A stretch of DNA of 64,000 nt from Gemmatimonadales bacterium (GTDB lineage: Bacteria > Gemmatimonadota > Gemmatimonadetes > Gemmatimonadales > GWC2-71-9). This document shows positions 4,557-41,472 of this stretch, in pieces; position 1 is the first letter of the stretch; every line of letters begins with the position of its first letter. Location: positions 1,878 through 65,877 of the forward strand of contig JBGSKF010000241.1 of the NCBI GenBank assembly GCA_041741375.1, given 5' to 3'. Below the pieces are notes generated by a model. That model ran no database searches. It had not been told where the DNA came from and was given only the letters and a program-made list of their open reading frames with translations. The translations under genes were made by a program, and so were the position numbers.

Positions 4557-4569
4557 GGGAGAACAGACA

Positions 4570-4618
4570 GGACCTAGGACATAGGACATAGGACATAGGA
4601 CATAGGGCAGAGGCCCGT
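4570..4618. repeat. Heptamer tandem array, GGACATA type (left arm of cassette A)
   Basis: Read directly: GGACCTA GGACATA GGACATA GGACATA GGACATA GGGCAGA GGCCCGT. It starts 14 nt after the tyrA stop and ends 2 nt before the stop of the 4HB gene. Confidence 0.9.
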
Positions 4619-4620
4619 CC

Positions 4621-5037
4621 TTAGCTCCTGCGGGATCTCCGGCGGAGTGCTCCCAGCATCTTCCCCACCTCATCCATCAGGCCCCGGACGTGGACGGTGT
4701 CCTTGTTGGCGAGAAATCCCACCTGCTCGCACAGCTCCAGGAGTGTTTCCACCTCTGCCAAAGAGCCGTGGGCAATGGCCAGAAACTGAGCCCGCTCGCG
4801 GACGGATTCGCGGACCCACCCTTCCGCAATGTTCGCGGGAACGGACGCCGCGGCACGGGTGATTTGCGACCGGAGACCATAGACCTCCTCCGTCGGGAGA
4901 CGTGGGGCCATGCGATAGATGTCCGTCGCCACGTCCATGGCTTTGCGCCAGACGGTCAACTTGCGGTAGTACAGGCCCACGAAGGCATCCTCTGTCTGGG
5001 GTGCATCCCAGACTACACATCGCCTTGAATTCTGCAT
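4621..5037 (-). CDS. Four-helix-bundle protein (23S rRNA intervening-sequence protein family, PF05635/TIGR02436-like)
   Basis: ORF 4621..5082. Start moved to ATG 5037 (MQNSRR...). Family hallmarks: YRKLTVWRKAMDVATDIYR, GLRSQITRAAASVPANIAEG, AHGSLAEVETLLELC. Confidence 0.8.
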   Translation of the reverse strand: MQNSRRCVVWDAPQTEDAFVGLYYRKLTVWRKAMDVATDIYRMAPRLPTEEVYGLRSQITRAAASVPANIAEGWVRESVRERAQFLAIAHGSLAEVETLLELCEQVGFLANKDTVHVRGLMDEVGKMLGALRRRSRRS

Positions 5038-5101
5038 GATCCATCCATGACATCCTGTCACGGCAGGTCGTGGATTTCCCACCAGATCGCGGATCCCGCG
5101 C

Positions 5102-5172
5102 GTCCCTATGTCCTCTGTCCTCTGTTGTCCTATGTCCTCCCTCTTGTCCTACGTCCTCTGTCCTATCCTGTC
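5102..5172. repeat. Degenerate heptamer array, TGTCCTN/TATGTCC type (right arm of cassette A, inverted relative to 4570-4618)
   Basis: GTCC cores at 5102, 5110, 5117, 5127, 5134, 5147, 5153 and 5160, mostly spaced 6-8 nt apart. The units are the reverse complement of GGACATA/GGACAGA. Confidence 0.85.
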
Positions 5173-10904: not shown

Positions 10905-10914
10905 CGCGCACCCC

Positions 10915-11046
10915 GTAGGGGCGAATTAAATTCGCCCATGGCATGATAGCCGAGCGCTCGTAGGGGCGAATAACATTCGCCCGTGGCCTGGTAGCAAGCG
11001 CCCGTGGGGCGAATCACATTCGCCCATCGCATGACGACCGGACACC
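10915..11046. repeat. Three tandem ~44-bp repeats, each with an 8-bp-stem hairpin (REP-like)
   Basis: Units start at 10915, 10960 and 11004. Consensus: GTAGGGGCGAAT-NNN-ATTCGCCCRTGGCMTGRTAGC... Hairpins GGGCGAAT/ATTCGCCC lie at 10919-10937, 10964-10982 and 11007-11025. Confidence 0.85.
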
Positions 11047-11082: not shown

Positions 11083-11165
11083 TGCCCGAGGCGAGAGTCG
11101 AACTCGCACGGGGTCGCCCCCGGTGGATTTTGAGTCCACTGCGTCTGCCATTCCGCCACTCGGGC
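11083..11165 (-). tRNA. tRNA-Leu (anticodon CAA), class II with a long variable arm; no encoded CCA
   Basis: Reverse complement: GCCCGAG TG GCGGAATGGCAGACGC A GTGGA CTCAAAA TCCAC CGGGGGCGACCCCGT GCGAG TTCGACT CTCGC CTCGGGC A. It folds by hand into a cloverleaf. Confidence 0.9.
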
Positions 11166-15438: not shown

Positions 15439-15720
15439 GAGCGCCCTCCTGATGAAGAATTCGGGCCGGGTTGCTCCCGACTCACCCAAAGCCCGGCACT
15501 AGAACAACAATACGGACGGCCAGGGACTGGCGGTATTGATCGTTGGAACGAGAGGGACTATATCTTTCGAATGATCTTGGAGCAGAGCCGTCGCTCGACA
15601 ACCGTTTCCGGCGCCCCCGCCGACCGATCGTGAATTCATTTACTGGATTTCGGGAGTGAGAATGGATTCTCGCGTGCGCGGGAATGACGGGCATTGGCTG
15701 TCGTCAATTGATTAGAGCCT

Positions 15721-15790
15721 CCCTAGGTCCTATGTCCTGCTGTCCTAAGTCCTGCGTTCTCCACCGCCCCTGCCTTCCGATCCACCCGCC
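15721..15790. repeat. Solo heptamer array (GTCCT type) plus a degenerate cassette core
   Basis: CCCTAGGTCC TATGTCC TGCTGTCC TAAGTCC TGCGTTC, then CCACCGCCCCTGCCTTCCGATCC. This shares CGCCCCTGCC and CCGAT with the cores at 33016-33047 and 40794-40822. Confidence 0.6.
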
Positions 15791-15848: not shown

Positions 15849-16718
15849 ATGACCGGGTTCGGGGTTGCTGAGGGAGACGTCGACGGCGGCCGCCTCCAGG
15901 TGGAGATCCGGACGGTGAACCACCGGCATTTCTCGGCCACGATCCGGGCTCCCTCCGACCTCGGCGTCTGGGAAGTGGCGATTCGCGAGCGGGTGCGGCG
16001 GGAAATCGACCGCGGATCGGTCACGGTACAGTGCCGATGGATCGAGCGGCCTCCGGGGCAGGCGCCCACTCTCCTGCTCGACGTGGACCGGGCCCGGGAA
16101 GCGATGGCACGGCTCCGGGAGTTGCAGATGGCTGTCGGCCTGAGCGGCGACATCCCTCTCGATCTCCTGGCCCGGCAGCCCGACGTGTTCCGGATGCCGG
16201 AGGAGGAGAACGGACAGGCTCCCTCGTGGGACGCGGTCGCCTCCGTTGTGGACGCCGCTTCGGCTGGATGCCGCGCGGCACGAACCCGGGAAGGGAGGGC
16301 CCTCGGCGAGGACCTCGGCGGGCGGGTGACGGAACTGGAGCGCGCGGCTGCGGCCATACGGGAGCTGGCGCCGGATCGCCTGGTGCGCGAGCGGGACCGC
16401 CTGAAAGCGTCGGTGGCTGAGCTGCTCGAGGGTCGTCCCGCACCGGAGGACCGGATCGCGCTGGAGATCGCGCTTCTCGCGGACCGGCTCGATATCTCCG
16501 AGGAGCTGGTCCGGCTGGAGGCCCACTTTGCCGCCGTACGGGATCTCCTCGGGGCCGATCGTCCGATCGGGAAGGAACTGGGATTCCTGGCCCAGGAGAT
16601 GGGGCGGGAAGTCAATACCGTGGGATCGAAGGCCAACGACGCCGCCATGGCAAGACTGGTCGTGACCATGAAGGGAGAACTCGAGAAATTTCGCGAGCAA
16701 CTCGACAACTTGGAGTGA
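15849..16718 (+). CDS. yicC: YicC-family stress-induced protein
   Basis: ORF 15837..16718. ATG at 15849 (MTGFG...). The N-terminal YicC domain and the C-terminal EINTIGSKAND-like motif (EVNTVGSKANDAAM) are present. Confidence 0.85.
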   Translation: MTGFGVAEGDVDGGRLQVEIRTVNHRHFSATIRAPSDLGVWEVAIRERVRREIDRGSVTVQCRWIERPPGQAPTLLLDVDRAREAMARLRELQMAVGLSGDIPLDLLARQPDVFRMPEEENGQAPSWDAVASVVDAASAGCRAARTREGRALGEDLGGRVTELERAAAAIRELAPDRLVRERDRLKASVAELLEGRPAPEDRIALEIALLADRLDISEELVRLEAHFAAVRDLLGADRPIGKELGFLAQEMGREVNTVGSKANDAAMARLVVTMKGELEKFREQLDNLE

Positions 16719-17607: not shown

Positions 17608-18806
17608 TGTCGTTCGCCAACCGGCACGTCGTCCTGGGCGTGACGGGAGGCATCGCCGCGTACAAGAGCTGCACTCTGCTCCGGCGCCTGGTGGAGGCGG
17701 GGGCCCGGGTGGACGTCATCCTGACGCATGGTGCCATGGAATTCGTGCGTCCCTTGACCTTCGAGGCGTTGAGCGGTCGACCGGTCCTGACTGACCTCTG
17801 GGCCCTGGACGCGGCACTCTCGCATGTGCGGCTGGGGCAGGACGCCGACCTGATCGTCGTGGCCCCCGCCACCGCCCACCTGATTGCCCGGCTGGCGCAC
17901 GGCCTGGCCGATGATCTGCTGACCTCGCTCCTCCTCGCACGAACGGCACCACTCCTGGTCGCCCCCGCCATGAACGATGCGATGTATGCCGCCCCGCCCA
18001 CCCAGGTCAACCTCGCCACCCTGCGGGCGCACGGGGTGCACCTGGTCGGTCCCGAGGTGGGACCTCTCGCCGAGGGCCCTTCGGACCGGCCGGGGCGAAT
18101 GAGCGAACCTGGGACCATCCTCGATCACGCGGCCCGTCTCCTTCACGGCGCCGGTCCCCTCTCCGGTCTCCGAGTGGTTGTCACAGCGGGAGCCACGCGG
18201 GAGGCCCTCGACCCGGTCCGTGTCGTCACCAACCGGTCCAGCGGCAAGATGGGCTTCCGGCTCGCGGAGGCCGCCTGGCAACGCGGGGCCGATGTCCACC
18301 TGATCACGGGGCCCTCGGCGGAGCCGACTCCCACCGGCGTCACGCTCGAAAGGATCACGACCACGGCAGACCTCCAGGCCGCCGTGGCCTCGGCGCTTCC
18401 CACGGCCGACGTCCTGATCATGGCCGCGGCACCCGCGGATTACCGGCCCGCCCGGTCCGCCGACCGGAAGCGTTCCCGAAGCGAGGGCACCCTGCAGGTC
18501 GACTTCGAGCCGACGGAGGACATTCTTCTCTCCACACGGGAGGCACGGAAGCCCGGGGCGGTCATCGTGGGGTTTGCTCTGGAGACGGGAGATGCCGTGG
18601 CGAAGGGACGCGCCAAGCTGGAACGCAAGGATCTCGACATCATCGTCATCAACGATGCTCTGGAACCGGGGGCCGGGTTCGACGTGGAAACCAACCGGGT
18701 GACCCTGGTGGATCGGACCGGGCAGGTGATCGAGGTACCGCTGGCCAGCAAGCGTGAGGTGGCCCACGCCATCCTCGCCACGGTGGAGGGTCGCCTTGCC
18801 CGATGA
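17607..18806 (+). CDS. coaBC: Phosphopantothenoylcysteine decarboxylase / phosphopantothenate-cysteine ligase
   Basis: 399 aa with VVLGVTGGIAAYKS, PAMN and NRSSGKMG motifs. Confidence 0.9.
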   Translation: MSFANRHVVLGVTGGIAAYKSCTLLRRLVEAGARVDVILTHGAMEFVRPLTFEALSGRPVLTDLWALDAALSHVRLGQDADLIVVAPATAHLIARLAHGLADDLLTSLLLARTAPLLVAPAMNDAMYAAPPTQVNLATLRAHGVHLVGPEVGPLAEGPSDRPGRMSEPGTILDHAARLLHGAGPLSGLRVVVTAGATREALDPVRVVTNRSSGKMGFRLAEAAWQRGADVHLITGPSAEPTPTGVTLERITTTADLQAAVASALPTADVLIMAAAPADYRPARSADRKRSRSEGTLQVDFEPTEDILLSTREARKPGAVIVGFALETGDAVAKGRAKLERKDLDIIVINDALEPGAGFDVETNRVTLVDRTGQVIEVPLASKREVAHAILATVEGRLAR

Positions 18807-32523: not shown

Positions 32524-32985
32524 ATGGCCCTGAACATCGCCCTCATCGAGCCGCAGATCCCGCCGAATACCGGAAACATCGCGCGCCTGTGCGCTGCCAC
32601 CGGAACCGGCCTCCACCTGATCGGTCCGCTCGGCTTTTCGCTCGACTCCGCGGACGTTCTGCGGGCCGGGCTCGACTACTGGGATGCGGTCGACCTCTGG
32701 CCCCATGCACACTGGCGCGAGTTCCGCGAGGCGATCTCCCGGGAGCGCTGCCTGTACTTTTCCGCGCGGGCCACCGTCCCCTTCTGGAACGCTCGCTTCA
32801 CACCGACCAGCTGCCTCGTCTTCGGGAACGAGACCGATGGGATGCCGGAGCGGATCCTGGAAAAGCATCCGGAACGGTGCTTCCGGATTCCCATGTCCGG
32901 TCCGGTTCGAAGCCTCAACCTGGCCACGGCGGCGGGGATCGTGCTGTACGAAGCGCTCCGGCAAACGGGAGGGAGTGGGGGGTAG
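32524..32985 (+). CDS. trmL: tRNA (cytidine/uridine-2'-O)-methyltransferase (SpoU/TrmL)
   Basis: Motifs: IALIEPQIPPNTGNIARLCAATG, LVFGNETDGMP, SLNLATAAGIVLYEA. The last six codons lie inside a heptamer array. Confidence 0.85.
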   Translation: MALNIALIEPQIPPNTGNIARLCAATGTGLHLIGPLGFSLDSADVLRAGLDYWDAVDLWPHAHWREFREAISRERCLYFSARATVPFWNARFTPTSCLVFGNETDGMPERILEKHPERCFRIPMSGPVRSLNLATAAGIVLYEALRQTGGSGG

Positions 32986-33008
32986 GGAGTCGGGAGTAAG
33001 GGACGACG
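32967..33008. repeat. Degenerate purine-rich heptamer array (left arm of cassette B)
   Basis: GGGAGGG AGTGGGG GGTAGGG AGTCGGG AGTAAGG GACGACG. It is partially complementary to GTCCTAC units (with G-U pairs). It overlaps the trmL 3' end. Confidence 0.6.
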
Positions 33009-33068
33009 CGTGCGTCGCCCCTGCCCCGGATGGAAACGACTGCCGATTGGCGGTCGAGGCGAATCCAT

Positions 33069-33173
33069 GTCCTACGTCCTACGTCCTACGTCCTACGTCC
33101 TACGTCCTACGTCCTACGTCCTACGTCCTACGTCCTACGTCCTACGTCCTACGTCCGATGTCCTATGTCCCGG
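33069..33173. repeat. Heptamer tandem array (GTCCTAC)x12 perfect plus 3 degenerate units (right arm of cassette B)
   Basis: Counted directly. Perfect 7-nt periodicity runs from 33069 to 33152, then GTCCGAT, GTCCTAT, GTCCCGG. Confidence 0.95.
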
Positions 33174-38089: not shown

Positions 38090-40003
38090 ATGACACTCGA
38101 TCCGAAGGTTCCCGGTGGCCCCCTCGCCGACAAGTGGACCCGGCACAAGTTCGACCTGAAACTGGTCAACCCCTCCAACAAGCGGAAACACACCCTGCTG
38201 GTGGTGGGCAGCGGTCTGGCGGGTGCCTCCGCGGCCGCCACCCTCGGCGAACTCGGGTACCGGGTGGAGTGCTACTGTTTCCAGGACTCGCCCCGGCGGG
38301 CCCACTCCATCGCCGCGCAGGGGGGGATCAACGCGGCCAAGAACTACCAGAACGATGGAGACAGCGTTCACCGCCTCTTCTACGACACGGTGAAGGGGGG
38401 AGACTTCCGGTCGCGCGAGGCCAACGTGCACCGGCTGGCCGAGATCAGCGTCAATATCATCGACCAGTGCGCGGCCCAGGGCGTCCCCTTCGCCCGGGAG
38501 TATGGCGGCCTGCTGTCGAATCGCAGCTTCGGCGGCGCCCAGGTGTCCCGGACCTTCTACGCCCGGGGCCAGACGGGGCAGCAGCTCCTGCTGGGCGCCT
38601 ACAGCGCCTTGGAGCGGCAGATCGCGCGGGGCAGCGTGACCATGCATCCCCGCACCGAGATGCTCGACCTCATCGTGGTCGACGGCCATGCCCGGGGCAT
38701 CGTGGTGCGGGACCTGGTGACCGGGGAAATCAGTTCCCATCTCGGCGATGCCGTGATTCTGGCGACCGGCGGCTACGCCAACGTCTTCTACCTCTCGACC
38801 AACGCCAAGGGCTGCAACGTCACCGCGGGCTACAGGGCCCACCGCCGGGGGGCGGCGTTTGCCAACCCATGCTATACCCAGATCCACCCCACCTGCATTC
38901 CGGTGAGTGGGGACTACCAGTCCAAGCTCACGCTCATGAGCGAGTCGCTGCGGAACGACGGACGCGTCTGGGTGCCCCGGACCCAGGGGGACACCCGCCG
39001 GCCCGGCGAGATCCCCGACGCCGAGCGCGACTATTACCTGGAGCGGAAGTATCCCAGCTTCGGCAATCTCGCACCGCGGGACATCTCCTCGCGCAGTGCC
39101 AAGGAGGTCTGTGACGAGGGGCGGGGCATCGGGGAGACGGGCCTGGGTGTCTATCTCGACTTCGCGGACAGCATCCGCCGGCTGGGCGAGGACACGATCC
39201 GGGAACGGTACGGAAACCTCTTCGAGATGTACGAACGAATCACCGGCGACGATCCGTACCGCGTGCCCATGCGGATCTATCCCGCCGCCCATTACGCCAT
39301 GGGCGGACTCTGGGTGGACTACAACCTCATGAGCACCATCCCCGGCCTCCATGTGCTGGGCGAGGCCAATTTCTCGGATCATGGGGCCAACCGTCTCGGC
39401 GCGAGCGCCCTGATGCAGGGACTGGGCGACGGATATTTTGTCATTCCCGCCACCATCTCCGACTACCTCGCCACCACGCGCCCCGCGCCCGTCCCACGGG
39501 ACCATCCCGACGTGCGAGCCACCGAGGCCGCCGCGCGCGCGCGGATCACCCGGCTGCTCGGCATCGGGGGTCGCCGGTCGGTGGATTCGTTCCACCGGGA
39601 ATTGGGAAAGATCATGTGGGACCACTGCGGCATGGCCCGGAATGCGAGCGGACTCACCCGCGCGCTGGAGCTGATTCCCGCGCTCCGGGAGGAGTTCTGG
39701 GCCGACCTCCGGCTGCCCGGATCCGGGGATGCCCTGAACCAGTCGCTGGAAAAGGCGGGCCGGGTGGCGGACTTCCTGGAGTTCGCCGAGCTCATGTGCA
39801 TCGACGCGCTGCACCGGGAAGAGTCGTGCGGCGGTCACTTCCGGGAGGAGCACCAGACGCCCGATGGGGAGGCGAAGCGGAACGACGATGATTTCGCCTA
39901 TGTCGCCGCCTGGGAGACCCCCGGCGACGGCCGTCCTCCGATCCTCCACAAGGAACCACTCGTCTTCGAGAACATTCACCTCGCCACCCGGAGCTACAAG
40001 TGA
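38090..40003 (+). CDS. sdhA: Succinate dehydrogenase / fumarate reductase flavoprotein subunit
   Basis: Internal ATG at 38090 of ORF 37877..40003. [12 protein letters not shown] (FAD-binding), [11 protein letters not shown] (His for covalent FAD), [10 protein letters not shown]. Confidence 0.95.
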
Positions 40004-40761
40004 ACCTCACCCTGCGCATCTGGCGCCAGGCCGGCCCCTCGGTTCCGGGACGGCTCGAGACGGTGCAGGCCACCGACGTCAATCCGGAGATGTCGTTTCT
40101 GGAAATGCTCGACGTGGTGAACGAGGATCTGATTGCGAGGGGCGCCGAGCCGGTCGCCTTCGATCATGACTGCCGTGAGGGGATCTGCGGGGCATGCAGC
40201 ATGACGATCAATGGCGTGCCGCACGGCCCGAACCGGGCCACCACGACCTGCCAGCTTCACATGCGGTTCTTCCGCGACGGCGACACGATCACCATCGAGC
40301 CGTTTCGGGCCACTGCCTTTCCCGTGCTCCGGGATCTCATCGTCGACCGGTCGGGCCTGGACCGGATCATCGCGGCCGGGGGGTATATCAGCGCGAGCAC
40401 CGGAAGTGCTCCGGACGCCAACGCCATCCTGATTCCCAAGGAGGCTGCCGACCGTGCCATGGACGCGGCGCAGTGCATCGGGTGCGGCGCCTGCGTCGCG
40501 GCGTGTCCGAACGCCTCGGCGATGCTCTTCACCGGAGCCAAGGTGATGCACTTCGGCCTCCTCCCCCAGGGCCAGCCGGAACGGCACCGGCGGGTGGTGG
40601 CCATGGTGCACATGATGGACGAGGCGGGGTTCGGAGGATGCACCAACTTCGGGGAGTGTCACGAAGCCTGCCCGAAGGAGATTCCCCTGGAGGCGATCGC
40701 GCGGCTGAATGCCGATTTCTTTCGGGCCAGATTGGTGTCGCGGGACGGCGAAGCGGCCTGA
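40000..40761 (+). CDS. sdhB: Succinate dehydrogenase iron-sulfur subunit
   Basis: [11 protein letters not shown] (2Fe-2S), [12 protein letters not shown] and [12 protein letters not shown] clusters. GTGA overlap with sdhA. Confidence 0.95.
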
Positions 40762-40893
40762 GGAAGTTGGAAATCTGAAGTTTGAAGGAGGCCTGCCCCT
40801 CCCCGGATTGAACCGTCCCGATCTCGCTCCCGCGACATCGGCCCGAACTTACGACAGACTTCACACTTCGAATTTCACACTTCGAACTTCGTA
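40762..40893. repeat. ORF-less inverted heptamer-array cassette C (GAAGTTN arm, core, ACTTCNN arm)
   Basis: Left arm: GGAAGTT GGAAATC TGAAGTT TGAAGGA (40762-40789). Core: GCCTGCCCCTCCCCGGATTGAACCGTCCCGAT... Right arm: ACTTCAC ACTTCGA ATTTCAC ACTTCGA ACTTCGT (40858-40892). It fills the whole sdhB/dcd convergent gap. Confidence 0.85.
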
Positions 40894-41472
40894 CTACATC
40901 CGGGGAAGCGTCACTCCCCGTTGGGCCTGGTACTTGCCGGCCTTGTCCCGGTAGCTCACTTGACACTCATCATCGGCATCGGCCTCGAAGAAGAGGACCT
41001 GACAGATCCCCTCGTTGGCGTAGACCCGGGCGGGGAGGGGAGTGGTGTTGCTGATCTCCAGGGTGACGTGCCCCTCCCACTCGGGCTCGAACGGGGTGAC
41101 GTTGGTGATGATCCCGCAGCGCGCATAGGTCGACTTTCCGACGCAGATGGTCAGGACGTTCCGCGGAATCCGGAAGTACTCGACCGACCGTGCCAGGGCA
41201 AATGAGTTCGGGGGAACGAGGCAGATCTCCCCTTCGTACTCGACGAAGCTCCGGGCATCGAAGTTCTTCGGATCCACAATCGCCGAGAGCGCATTGGTGA
41301 AGATGCGGAACTCGGGGGCGACCCGCATGTCGTACCCATACGACGACACGCCGTAGGAGATCACGCGATCTCCGTCCGCCGCGGGCTTCCGAATCTGGCC
41401 GTCGACGAAGGGTTCGATCATGCCATGCTCGCGTGCCATGCGGCGGATCCAACGGTCGGACTTGATGGACAT
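40894..41472 (-). CDS. dcd: dCTP deaminase
   Basis: C-terminal 192 codons of ORF 40894..41994, from ATG 41472. [41 protein letters not shown]. Confidence 0.9.

Follow-up and report, generated by a model that had tools for sequence, protein, structure and literature searches.

A palindromic cassette with inverted heptamer arms between the convergent sdhB and dcd genes of a Gemmatimonadales bacterium, a candidate member of a widespread class of intervening-sequence-like insertions

This study revealed that the gap between the convergent genes sdhB and dcd of a Gemmatimonadales bacterium is wholly taken up by a single element, in which two mutually complementary arrays of tandem heptamers enclose a 68-nt core. 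The element covers positions 40762-40893 of a 64-kb window, by which we mean the whole stretch of 64,000 nucleotides that was analysed (contig JBGSKF010000241.1 of assembly GCA_041741375.1, positions 1,878 to 65,877; G+C content 66%). On balance, we regard it as a member, devoid of an open reading frame (ORF), of a widespread class of insertion-type palindromic cassettes with inverted, locus-specific heptamer arms, which resemble the intervening sequences (IVSs) of rRNA genes. Elements of this kind are already known but uncharacterised; what is new is the locus-specific nature of the heptamers, the strict polarity of the arms, the hypervariable loop and a general link with four-helix-bundle (4HB) protein genes and IVSs.

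The element leaves almost nothing of the 132 bases between the two stop codons unoccupied: the 5' arm begins at the base directly after the sdhB stop and the 3' arm closes one base short of that of dcd. The arm-core-arm layout that the original prediction had drawn for this gap was confirmed in its coordinates and unit sequences. The same applies to its observation that the window's other two cassettes, numbered 1 and 2, are built from different heptamers, AGGACAT/ATGTCCT and GGGAGTA/GTCCTAC respectively (the sdhB/dcd element being cassette 3); at least three unrelated heptamers are present within the window. Tandem Repeats Finder reported the right arm alone (period 7, 4.4 copies; period 14, 2.4 copies), the left arm being too short and degenerate for this program, and the latter was recovered by a separate repeat search. 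The two arms form an inverted repeat (40763-40787 and 40866-40890) of 25 nt with 80% complementarity, and a second register gives 22 nt with 77%. The core was identical in four contigs of the same strain.

With regard to conservation, the arms and the core were found to behave differently. The 8-kb stretch around the cassette is collinear with, and 95.3% identical to, contig JBDIWC010000016.1 of a Gemmatimonadales metagenome-assembled genome (MAG), and orthologous sdhB/dcd gaps were obtained via close homologs of Dcd; contigs used for comparison are referred to by L numbers. In L008/L104, which belong to a 95%-identical genome, the core is kept at about 95% and the arms comprise five left and four right units, as against four and five in the window. 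L098/L099 (Dcd 96% identical) exhibit GAAGTT/AACTTC-type arms of 4/4 units around an unrelated core of about 34 nt, and L101 (Dcd 95% identical) exhibits arms of the same type with 7/9 units around an unrelated core of about 150 nt. Neither of these cores (CCACGTGTGACGTCACATGCA...) showed any similarity to the window core or to any other sequence fetched. L102 and L103 (Dcd 90% and 88% identical) contain no cassette, their gene order differs and dcd abuts the next gene; the dcd product ends in ...PRM* in the window and in ...PRL* in these two cassette-free contigs. Judged from these comparisons, the core is no conserved part of the architecture, the arms persisting while the loop turns over.

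The original prediction had treated a shared central core as a conserved part of all three cassettes, and this did not hold. The cores of cassettes 2 and 3 do have a motif of about 30 nt in common, GCCCCT(G)CCCCGGATKGAAMCG..TSCCGAT, with a local alignment score of 29 against a shuffle maximum of 25. Cassette 1, however, contains a 4HB gene in place of such a core and shared nothing with the cores of cassettes 2 and 3 in local alignments. Besides the unrelated cores at the orthologous gaps, the cassette-2 ortholog in L104 retains the left arm, a small hairpin and nine right-arm units but is missing the GGATGGAAACG part of the motif, so that the motif of cassettes 2 and 3 is a peculiarity of the window lineage. 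A scan with GCCCCT(N)CCCCGGATKGAAMCG over one genome for each of 185,579 species (596 Gb) gave six loci, among which heptamer arms were seen at the ortholog alone; the remaining five loci are armless and correspond to about the number expected by chance. A high-copy conserved core was rejected on these grounds. The motif was not present in any other collected cassette; it occurs twice in the window and once, in the ortholog, in the related species genome. An origin of the core as a remnant of the leader or trailer of a 4HB cassette was also rejected, no significant similarity being found to the 4HB cassettes of the window or of L011, to the whole window or to L011.

One candidate compensatory change between orthologs was observed, GAAAT/ATTTC in the window versus GAAGT/ACTTC in L008, in the unit-by-unit register. 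Because the minimum free energy (MFE) fold uses the neighbouring pairing register, this change is ambiguous, and it was rejected as proof of pairing. L008 also carries a single C to T substitution in the small internal hairpin, by which a C-G pair becomes U.G on the + strand.

The sdhB/dcd cassette belongs among a large number of period-7 arrays. In a non-redundant census sample of about 0.76 Mb of related and unrelated contigs, 62 tandem arrays of period 7 were found, compared with 2-10 in dinucleotide shuffles, and arrays of periods 8, 9, 10 and 11 numbered 4, 5, 0 and 0. A metagenome scan with SdhB returned only relatives of at most 73% identity and no cassette orthologs, and served as an unbiased 0.6-Mb sample. 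Of 55 heptamer arrays, 34 had an inverted partner no more than 1.5 kb away, scoring well above a reversed-sequence control. The loci exhibit heptamers of their own, such as GAGTTCA, TGAGCTR, GGGCTGA, GGAACGC, TGAATAA, GGATATT, GGACGAG and TGGGTGT. Arms from different loci lack column-wise homology, and unit numbers vary even among orthologs, which comprised four sequences with two unrelated cores; complementarity was therefore assessed by scoring the left arms of 17 cassettes with different heptamers against all of their right arms (17 x 17 matrix). The mean score was 18.9 for the two arms of one locus and 5.9 (standard deviation 3.2) for arms of different loci, and high off-diagonal values came only from loci of the same heptamer family or from orthologs. 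The arms of a locus are therefore complementary to each other well beyond the arms of other loci, which is contrary to the outcome that the original prediction had set against itself. Its wider claim, that selection acts on pairing and on the 7-nt period rather than on the repeat sequence, stands only in part: pairing and period are kept while the sequence is free, but selection for pairing does not follow, since palindromic birth combined with slippage or intrastrand templating would look alike. The sdhB/dcd cassette and 15 other short cassettes are predicted to fold as long hairpins on both strands, with z of about -3 to -10.

The cassettes exhibit a strict polarity. The purine-rich arm is the 5' arm in 29 of 30 cassettes (window and other loci; p = 6e-8), which is a strand-independent property, and stop triplets are present in 22 of the 30 5' arms versus 10 of the 30 3' arms. 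As a double-stranded palindrome has no reason for such a polarity, this points to a constraint on single strands, and the constraint probably acts on RNA, with transcripts entering from either side. Mismatches of the G.U and A.C types (37 versus 24, in repeat units that are not independent) do not single out one strand, as a symmetric element would lead one to expect, but this is weak evidence. An arm-loop-arm hairpin with yet another heptamer (TGGGTGT / TACCCAG, about eight units each) was noted at 9531-9660 of L011, where it adjoins a gene that by eye resembles a tRNA gene. It is predicted at -84.9 kcal/mol (z -8.4) as + strand RNA and at -58.7 (z -3.7) as - strand RNA, the former being much more stable because of eight G.U pairs.

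The class also comprises a gene-bearing form, and every 4HB gene examined sits within heptamer-type arrays. In the window, tblastn and hidden Markov model searches found a 4HB gene in cassette 1 alone. Its product falls into TIGR02436, the family earlier named 23S rRNA intervening sequence protein (S23p), and shows a weak match to NF033474; we take the 4HB family to be related to Avd, a nucleic-acid binder in diversity-generating retroelements. The cassette has an ortholog with the same heptamer, GGACATA, at 9828-10411 of L011, a related Gemmatimonadales MAG. Homologs of its 4HB protein, about 65% identical, occur across many phyla and often on contigs of about 1 kb, which suggests that assemblies break at the arms. 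Other contigs end inside a heptamer arm (L098 10580-10700, L099 3388-3508, L100 5129-5160, L023 1-63), and heptamer arrays are, as far as contig ends can tell, a recurrent cause of assembly breaks.

Gene-bearing cassettes were found in the window, in L011, L012-17, L090 and L107-111, and at 11 of 15 plasmid loci. The one in L090 (462-966) contains a distant 4HB gene (123 aa) with arms of GGATATT x7 / ATCCAAC x4 and is placed between sdhA and sdhB in the direction of the operon. The 15 plasmid 4HB genes came from Nostoc, Calothrix, Anabaena, Geminocystis, Stanieria, Pseudanabaena, Picosynechococcus, Leptolyngbya, Oscillatoria, Azospirillum and Gemmatirosa; 11 of their loci exhibit inverted arms of a locus-specific 7-mer, and the other four exhibit direct or one-sided arrays. 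The arms of L112, L123 and L124 score best at period 8, that of Gemmatirosa being a clear 8-mer. In L112 (Gemmatirosa kalamazoonensis plasmid 1; 640-730 and 1148-1185), octamer arms GGGCAGGA / CTCCTGCC surround the 4HB gene, and a further arm-loop-arm hairpin lies upstream of it. At three cyanobacterial plasmid loci (L113 640-1260, L122 180-900 and L123 340-790), 4HB genes and heptamer arrays are situated within CRISPR-cas operons, at the cas6/cas4 and cas10/cmr3 junctions, in the orientation of the cas genes. At 9 of about 12 annotated plasmid loci, the 4HB gene and its upstream neighbour point in the same direction.

A single site within the ORF of a DUF1156-type DNA methylase, after ...PPVNP and before ...GLAEDVRxYGQWMR, holds 4HB cassettes that each have different heptamers. 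These methylase-embedded cassettes occur in at least three phyla (Gemmatimonadota, Fermentibacter-like and Chloroflexota (Viridilinea)) and in unassigned metagenome contigs (L015-L017), which encode a 4HB protein identical to one from Thermochromatium tepidum. In four diverged versions, no stop interrupts the methylase frame in either arm or along the 4HB gene, which uses another frame; the probability of a stop-free methylase frame under synonymous codon shuffling was 0.51, 0.11, 0.03 and 0.012. L012 (5380-5400) and L013 (935-965) are near-identical contigs, of which L012 has one AGGAAAT unit fewer, with a shift of the methylase frame downstream, a possible case of DNA methylase phase variation through heptamer slippage. 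A gene-less mini-cassette, TTAGGACTCAGGGCTTAGGACATAG...CCTAAGTCCTATGTCCTGGGTCCTGG, lies in frame in the methylase ORF of L015 (893-960), where it replaces about six codons of L016. A third cassette in L015 (about 1380-1500) breaks the methylase frame, and an IS481-like transposase end stands in place of the N-terminal half. Insertion-type behaviour of the class is suggested because cassettes lie within the methylase ORF and between sdhA and sdhB, and because the dcd C-terminus next to the cassette differs from that of its cassette-free relatives.

With regard to the structure of the sdhB/dcd cassette, the predicted RNA fold with G.U pairs exhibits continuous helices of up to 12 bp in the MFE structure. 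The original prediction of a ladder of 5-bp helices was correct as to the complementary 5-nt cores of the units, but the steps are not limited to 5 bp. Relative to 200 dinucleotide shuffles, the fold has a z of -2.5 (+ strand) or -1.5 (- strand), and values of -2.8 and -3.1 were obtained when the ends of the cassette were slightly shifted. A known RNA family was rejected, given that Rfam gave no match at gathering score and only noise at E >=1.5 for 40700-40950, in a search extending to E 10. No intrinsic terminator-like site (hairpin plus U-tract) was found on either strand of 40500-41100 and no sigma-70 promoter consensus at the cassette, and both candidates were rejected. A G-quadruplex former was rejected because the GAAGTTN units contain no G-runs of three or more. 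A tRNA-derived core (GGTTCAATCC in reverse complement) was rejected by inspection, as the stem has only 3 bp and cassette 2 does not contain it, and also because the only tRNA reported by Rfam in the window sits elsewhere, at 11083-11165; no rRNA was reported in the window. Finally, the only direct repeat flanking the cassette (10 nt, 90%) consists of sdhB and dcd coding sequence. It is most simply taken as a chance match, a target-site duplication being rejected; in the cassette-free L102/L103 the copy on the dcd side has diverged, reading GGGGGAGGG instead of the GGGGAAGCG of the window. The coordinates are collected in Table 1.

Table 1. Coordinates of the sdhB/dcd cassette (cassette 3) and its flanking genes, of cassettes 1 and 2 of the window, and of methylase-embedded cassettes in other contigs.
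Feature	Position	Strand	Remarks
sdhB ORF	40000-40761	+	succinate dehydrogenase Fe-S subunit; NF005746, E 2.8e-127
sdhB stop codon TGA	40759-40761	+	alternatively readable as onset of the first repeat unit (TGAGGAA)
5' arm	40762-40789	+	four purine-rich heptamers, GGAAGTT GGAAATC TGAAGTT TGAAGGA; contains TGA triplets
Core (loop)	40790-40857	+	68 nt, ORF-less; differs among orthologs, no defining part of the element
Motif GCCCCTCCCCGGATTGAACCGTCCCGAT	40795-40822	+	common to the cassette-2 core at 33018-33048
Small internal hairpin	40818-40841	+	CCGAT-CTCGC-TCCC-GCGAC-ATCGG; predicted, MFE and centroid folds
3' arm	40858-40892	+	five pyrimidine-rich heptamers, ACTTCAC ACTTCGA ATTTCAC ACTTCGA ACTTCGT; complementary to the 5' arm
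dcd ORF	40894-41472	-	dCTP deaminase; TIGR02274, E 6e-45
dcd stop codon	40894-40896	-	CTA on the + strand; one base beyond the last 3'-arm unit
Cassette 1, gene-bearing	4562-5166	+	4HB gene flanked by AGGACAT x6 and ATGTCCT-type arms
4HB gene of cassette 1	4621-4980	-	TIGR02436, E 1.4e-33
Cassette 2	32966-33172	+	5' arm GGGAGTA-type, about 5 units; core 33004-33068; 3' arm GTCCTAC x14.6
Methylase-embedded cassettes	L013 505-1030; L016 524-1002; L107 1455-1900; L111 1355-1935		also in L012, L015, L017 and L108-110

Complementary arms had been claimed for each of the three cassettes, a claim that is weak for cassette 2. The GGGAGTA and GTCCTAC arms of the latter reach a Watson-Crick score of 5, which equals that of unrelated loci, and the fold (z -0.5 to -0.8) is no better than those of shuffles. 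An ORF for a SpoU-like methylase (32524-32985) stops at a TAG (32983-32985) inside the 5' arm of cassette 2, whereas in the 95%-identical L104 (18374-18420) it runs through the arm and the core to a later TAG; cassette 2 has therefore replaced or extended the C-terminus of this ORF. At about 15640-15755 of the window, a pyrimidine-type array (GTCCTAT GTCCTGC TGTCCTA AGTCCTG) stands alone, apart from a degenerate GGGAGTG upstream of it. It is adjoined by a palindrome resembling the repetitive extragenic palindromic (REP) type, CGTCATCCCGGCG..CGCCGGGATGACG in L011 (16080-16115 and 17915-17950), with a related sequence in the window. Unpaired arrays are also found in L011, namely TAGGACG x7 at 16002-16047 and GGACATA x8 at 17741-17809. 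A 45-bp tandem repeat at 10912-11034 of the window (2.8 copies, 81% matches) is unrelated to the heptamer cassettes and lies about 50 nt from the tRNA gene at 11083-11165 (- strand).

Several other explanations have to be weighed against an insertion-type cassette. A host-selected bidirectional 3'-end element serving sdhB and dcd, be it a terminator, an mRNA stabiliser or an insulator whose pairing is selected, seems rather unlikely to us. It would fit the exact position between two convergent stop codons, the fact that at least four lineages have kept arms here around changing cores, and the symmetric polarity, which gives both transcripts the same order of arms; the arrays of Xanthomonas also cluster at stop codons (PMC4692102). 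Yet no signature of a U-tract or an intrinsic terminator was found, L102 and L103 do without the hairpin, with dcd abutting the next gene, and cassette 2 of the same window pairs poorly. Such cassettes are moreover located inside ORFs, operons and, according to the literature, rRNA, where a terminator would harm. A lower probability still attaches to a neutral by-product of DNA metabolism, namely heptamer microsatellites generated by polymerase slippage and rendered palindromic by template switching, with neither function nor mobility. The variation in unit number of both arms between close relatives, the assembly breaks in the arrays, the hypervariable loop, and the over-representation of heptamer simple sequence repeats together with the slippage hypothesis in the literature are all consistent with this origin. 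It leaves unexplained, however, why the purine arm comes first in 29 of 30 cassettes, why 4HB genes are near-obligately associated with such arms across phyla, why the host frame is open through the methylase-embedded cassettes and why 5' arms are enriched in stop triplets.

We consider it improbable that the array is measured by a protein, with each heptamer serving as the binding unit of a repeat-binding protein (for example the pentameric 4HB protein of cassette 1, or a cold-shock or S1-type protein) loaded on both strands. In its favour, the period is strictly 7 nt regardless of sequence, and a 4HB gene lies within such arms at 15 of the 15 plasmid loci examined; the kinship to Avd that we presume for the 4HB protein, from its weak NF033474 match, points in the same direction. 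CspB is also stated to bind heptamer units in a quotation given in PMC4679880. A sequence-specific reader is nevertheless unlikely, because the heptamers are wholly different among cassettes of one genome while the 64 kb hold a single 4HB gene. Some arms are octamers (Gemmatirosa), and the S23p protein of Coxiella is probably not even made (PMC4990558). The reading preferred by the original prediction, a structured small RNA or riboregulator with a functional conserved core that the arms merely close, is now very improbable. The motif common to the cores of cassettes 2 and 3, and the small internal hairpin with its G.U-compatible substitution in L008, would agree with it. It is largely refuted by orthologous cassettes with unrelated cores, and further opposed by the cassette-2 ortholog without the motif, by a 596-Gb scan that gave the ortholog and five armless matches at chance level, and by the failure to find an Rfam family or a promoter consensus.

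According to the reading that we favour, an IVS-like insertion, the cassette would occupy the 3' region that the convergent transcripts of sdhB and dcd have in common. A transcript from either side would meet the purine-rich arm first, where TGA and TAG in several frames would end translation; the loop and the complementary pyrimidine-rich arm would follow, giving a long imperfect hairpin. This hairpin may be a substrate of RNase III and/or a 3'-end barrier, by analogy with IVSs. The arms could stay complementary through concerted evolution, that is, slippage of 7-nt units combined with copying between the arms or with selection, whereas the loop would have no conserved function and be turned over by insertion and deletion. 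ORF-less copies would descend from gene-bearing ones. We lean towards regarding the sdhB/dcd cassette as tolerated selfish DNA rather than as a host-beneficial element. More tentatively, heptamer-armed cassettes might all form one family of promoter-less insertion modules that live within host transcripts (rRNA, operons, CRISPR-cas loci and ORFs). Stops and Shine-Dalgarno (SD)-like units for the enclosed 4HB gene would then be supplied by the 5' purine arm and the closure of a stem for excision by RNase III by the 3' arm, ORF-less copies would resemble transposable elements of the miniature inverted-repeat type (MITEs), and gain or loss of one 7-nt unit would act as a phase switch of the host gene where a cassette lies in an ORF (L013 versus L012).

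Several points weigh against the favoured reading. No target-site duplication was found at the sdhB/dcd cassette, and mobility left no direct sign there, in that no filled and empty pair with identical flanks was found (the synteny of L102 and L103 differs). The predicted fold beats shuffles by a modest z of about -2.5 to -3, and the G.U and A.C mismatches pick out no transcribed strand. Cleavage of this cassette by RNase III is proposed by analogy, and the descent of the ORF-less copy from a gene-bearing form is suggested by the common architecture; the heptamers of cassettes 1 and 3 differ, and the core is similar to no 4HB cassette. The core is also conserved between the window and L008, although a genome identity of 95% makes this say little.

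The odd excess of heptamer microsatellites in bacteria has been recognised for decades, for example as the short tandemly repeated repetitive (STRR) sequences of cyanobacteria and as GGGAATC in Xanthomonas, and rRNA intervening sequences with an S23p ORF have stood as a curiosity without explanation since about 1990. The present analysis unites heptamer arrays and IVSs in one architecture, comprising a purine arm, a cargo or loop and a complementary arm, in several phyla. If correct, this would provide a handle on the nature of the very common genes for four-helix-bundle proteins, explain many breaks in metagenome assemblies, and offer a testable model of an RNA-level hairpin and RNase III, with possible phase variation of a DNA methylase by heptamer slippage. 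What follows for the sdhB/dcd locus is modest, namely that the gap is no dedicated regulatory RNA with a conserved core.

The original prediction knew of no described element class with this architecture, but there are precedents, the closest of which is the IVS in the 23S rRNA of Coxiella burnetii. In this IVS, terminal inverted repeats give a stem of 28 bp that RNase III cuts, an S23p ORF is present, and the 5' end consists of 3-4 tandem GACAGAT heptamers, their number varying between strains (PMC4990558). As in the 23S IVSs of Coxiella burnetii and Leptospira (PMC4990558), the sdhB/dcd cassette exhibits terminal inverted repeats that would give a long stem; the Coxiella arm likewise consists of tandem heptamers, with the purine-rich, SD-like arm at the 5' end. 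The loop of IVSs encodes the same protein family as cassette 1, and ORF-less IVSs also occur. In contrast, the sdhB/dcd cassette is located between protein genes rather than in helix 25 or 45 of 23S rRNA, it has no ORF and another heptamer, and excision by RNase III, which is known for Coxiella, can here be proposed only by analogy. IVSs have not been described as a general class with locus-specific heptamers, and our text searches found no paper tying heptamer arrays in general to the 4HB gene.

In Xanthomonas, 70-75 paired convergent GGGAATC arrays lie near or overlap stop codons, are mostly transcribed and vary between species; they have been read as G-quadruplex formers (Rehm et al. 2015, PMC4692102). 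These arrays, and the GGGGAYT arrays of Nostoc, resemble the sdhB/dcd cassette in that two tandem-heptamer arrays converge on opposite strands and adjoin or overlap stop codons, and in that the same loci are found in related species with variation in length and sequence. They differ in that Xanthomonas uses one G-tract heptamer genome-wide, whereas here each locus has its own heptamer and GAAGTT contains no G-tract; neither the link with 4HB genes nor the view of an arm-core-arm cassette was put forward in that paper (PMC4692102). The cyanobacterial STRRs and the TAACTGA repeats of Beggiatoa (PMC4679880) are likewise intergenic tandem heptamers, often several per genome and many of them containing stops, but they are mainly direct arrays of other phyla, for which inverted pairing and enclosure of a cargo are not defining. 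Finally, REP elements and bacterial interspersed mosaic elements, Correia elements, MITE-like elements and the Rickettsia palindromic elements are also short palindromes at gene ends or between convergent genes that form hairpins when transcribed, and those of Rickettsia lie in frame inside ORFs, as do the methylase-embedded cassettes. All of these are defined by a conserved high-copy sequence, in MITEs together with terminal inverted repeats and target-site duplications, whereas in the cassettes described here only the period and the self-complementarity are kept.

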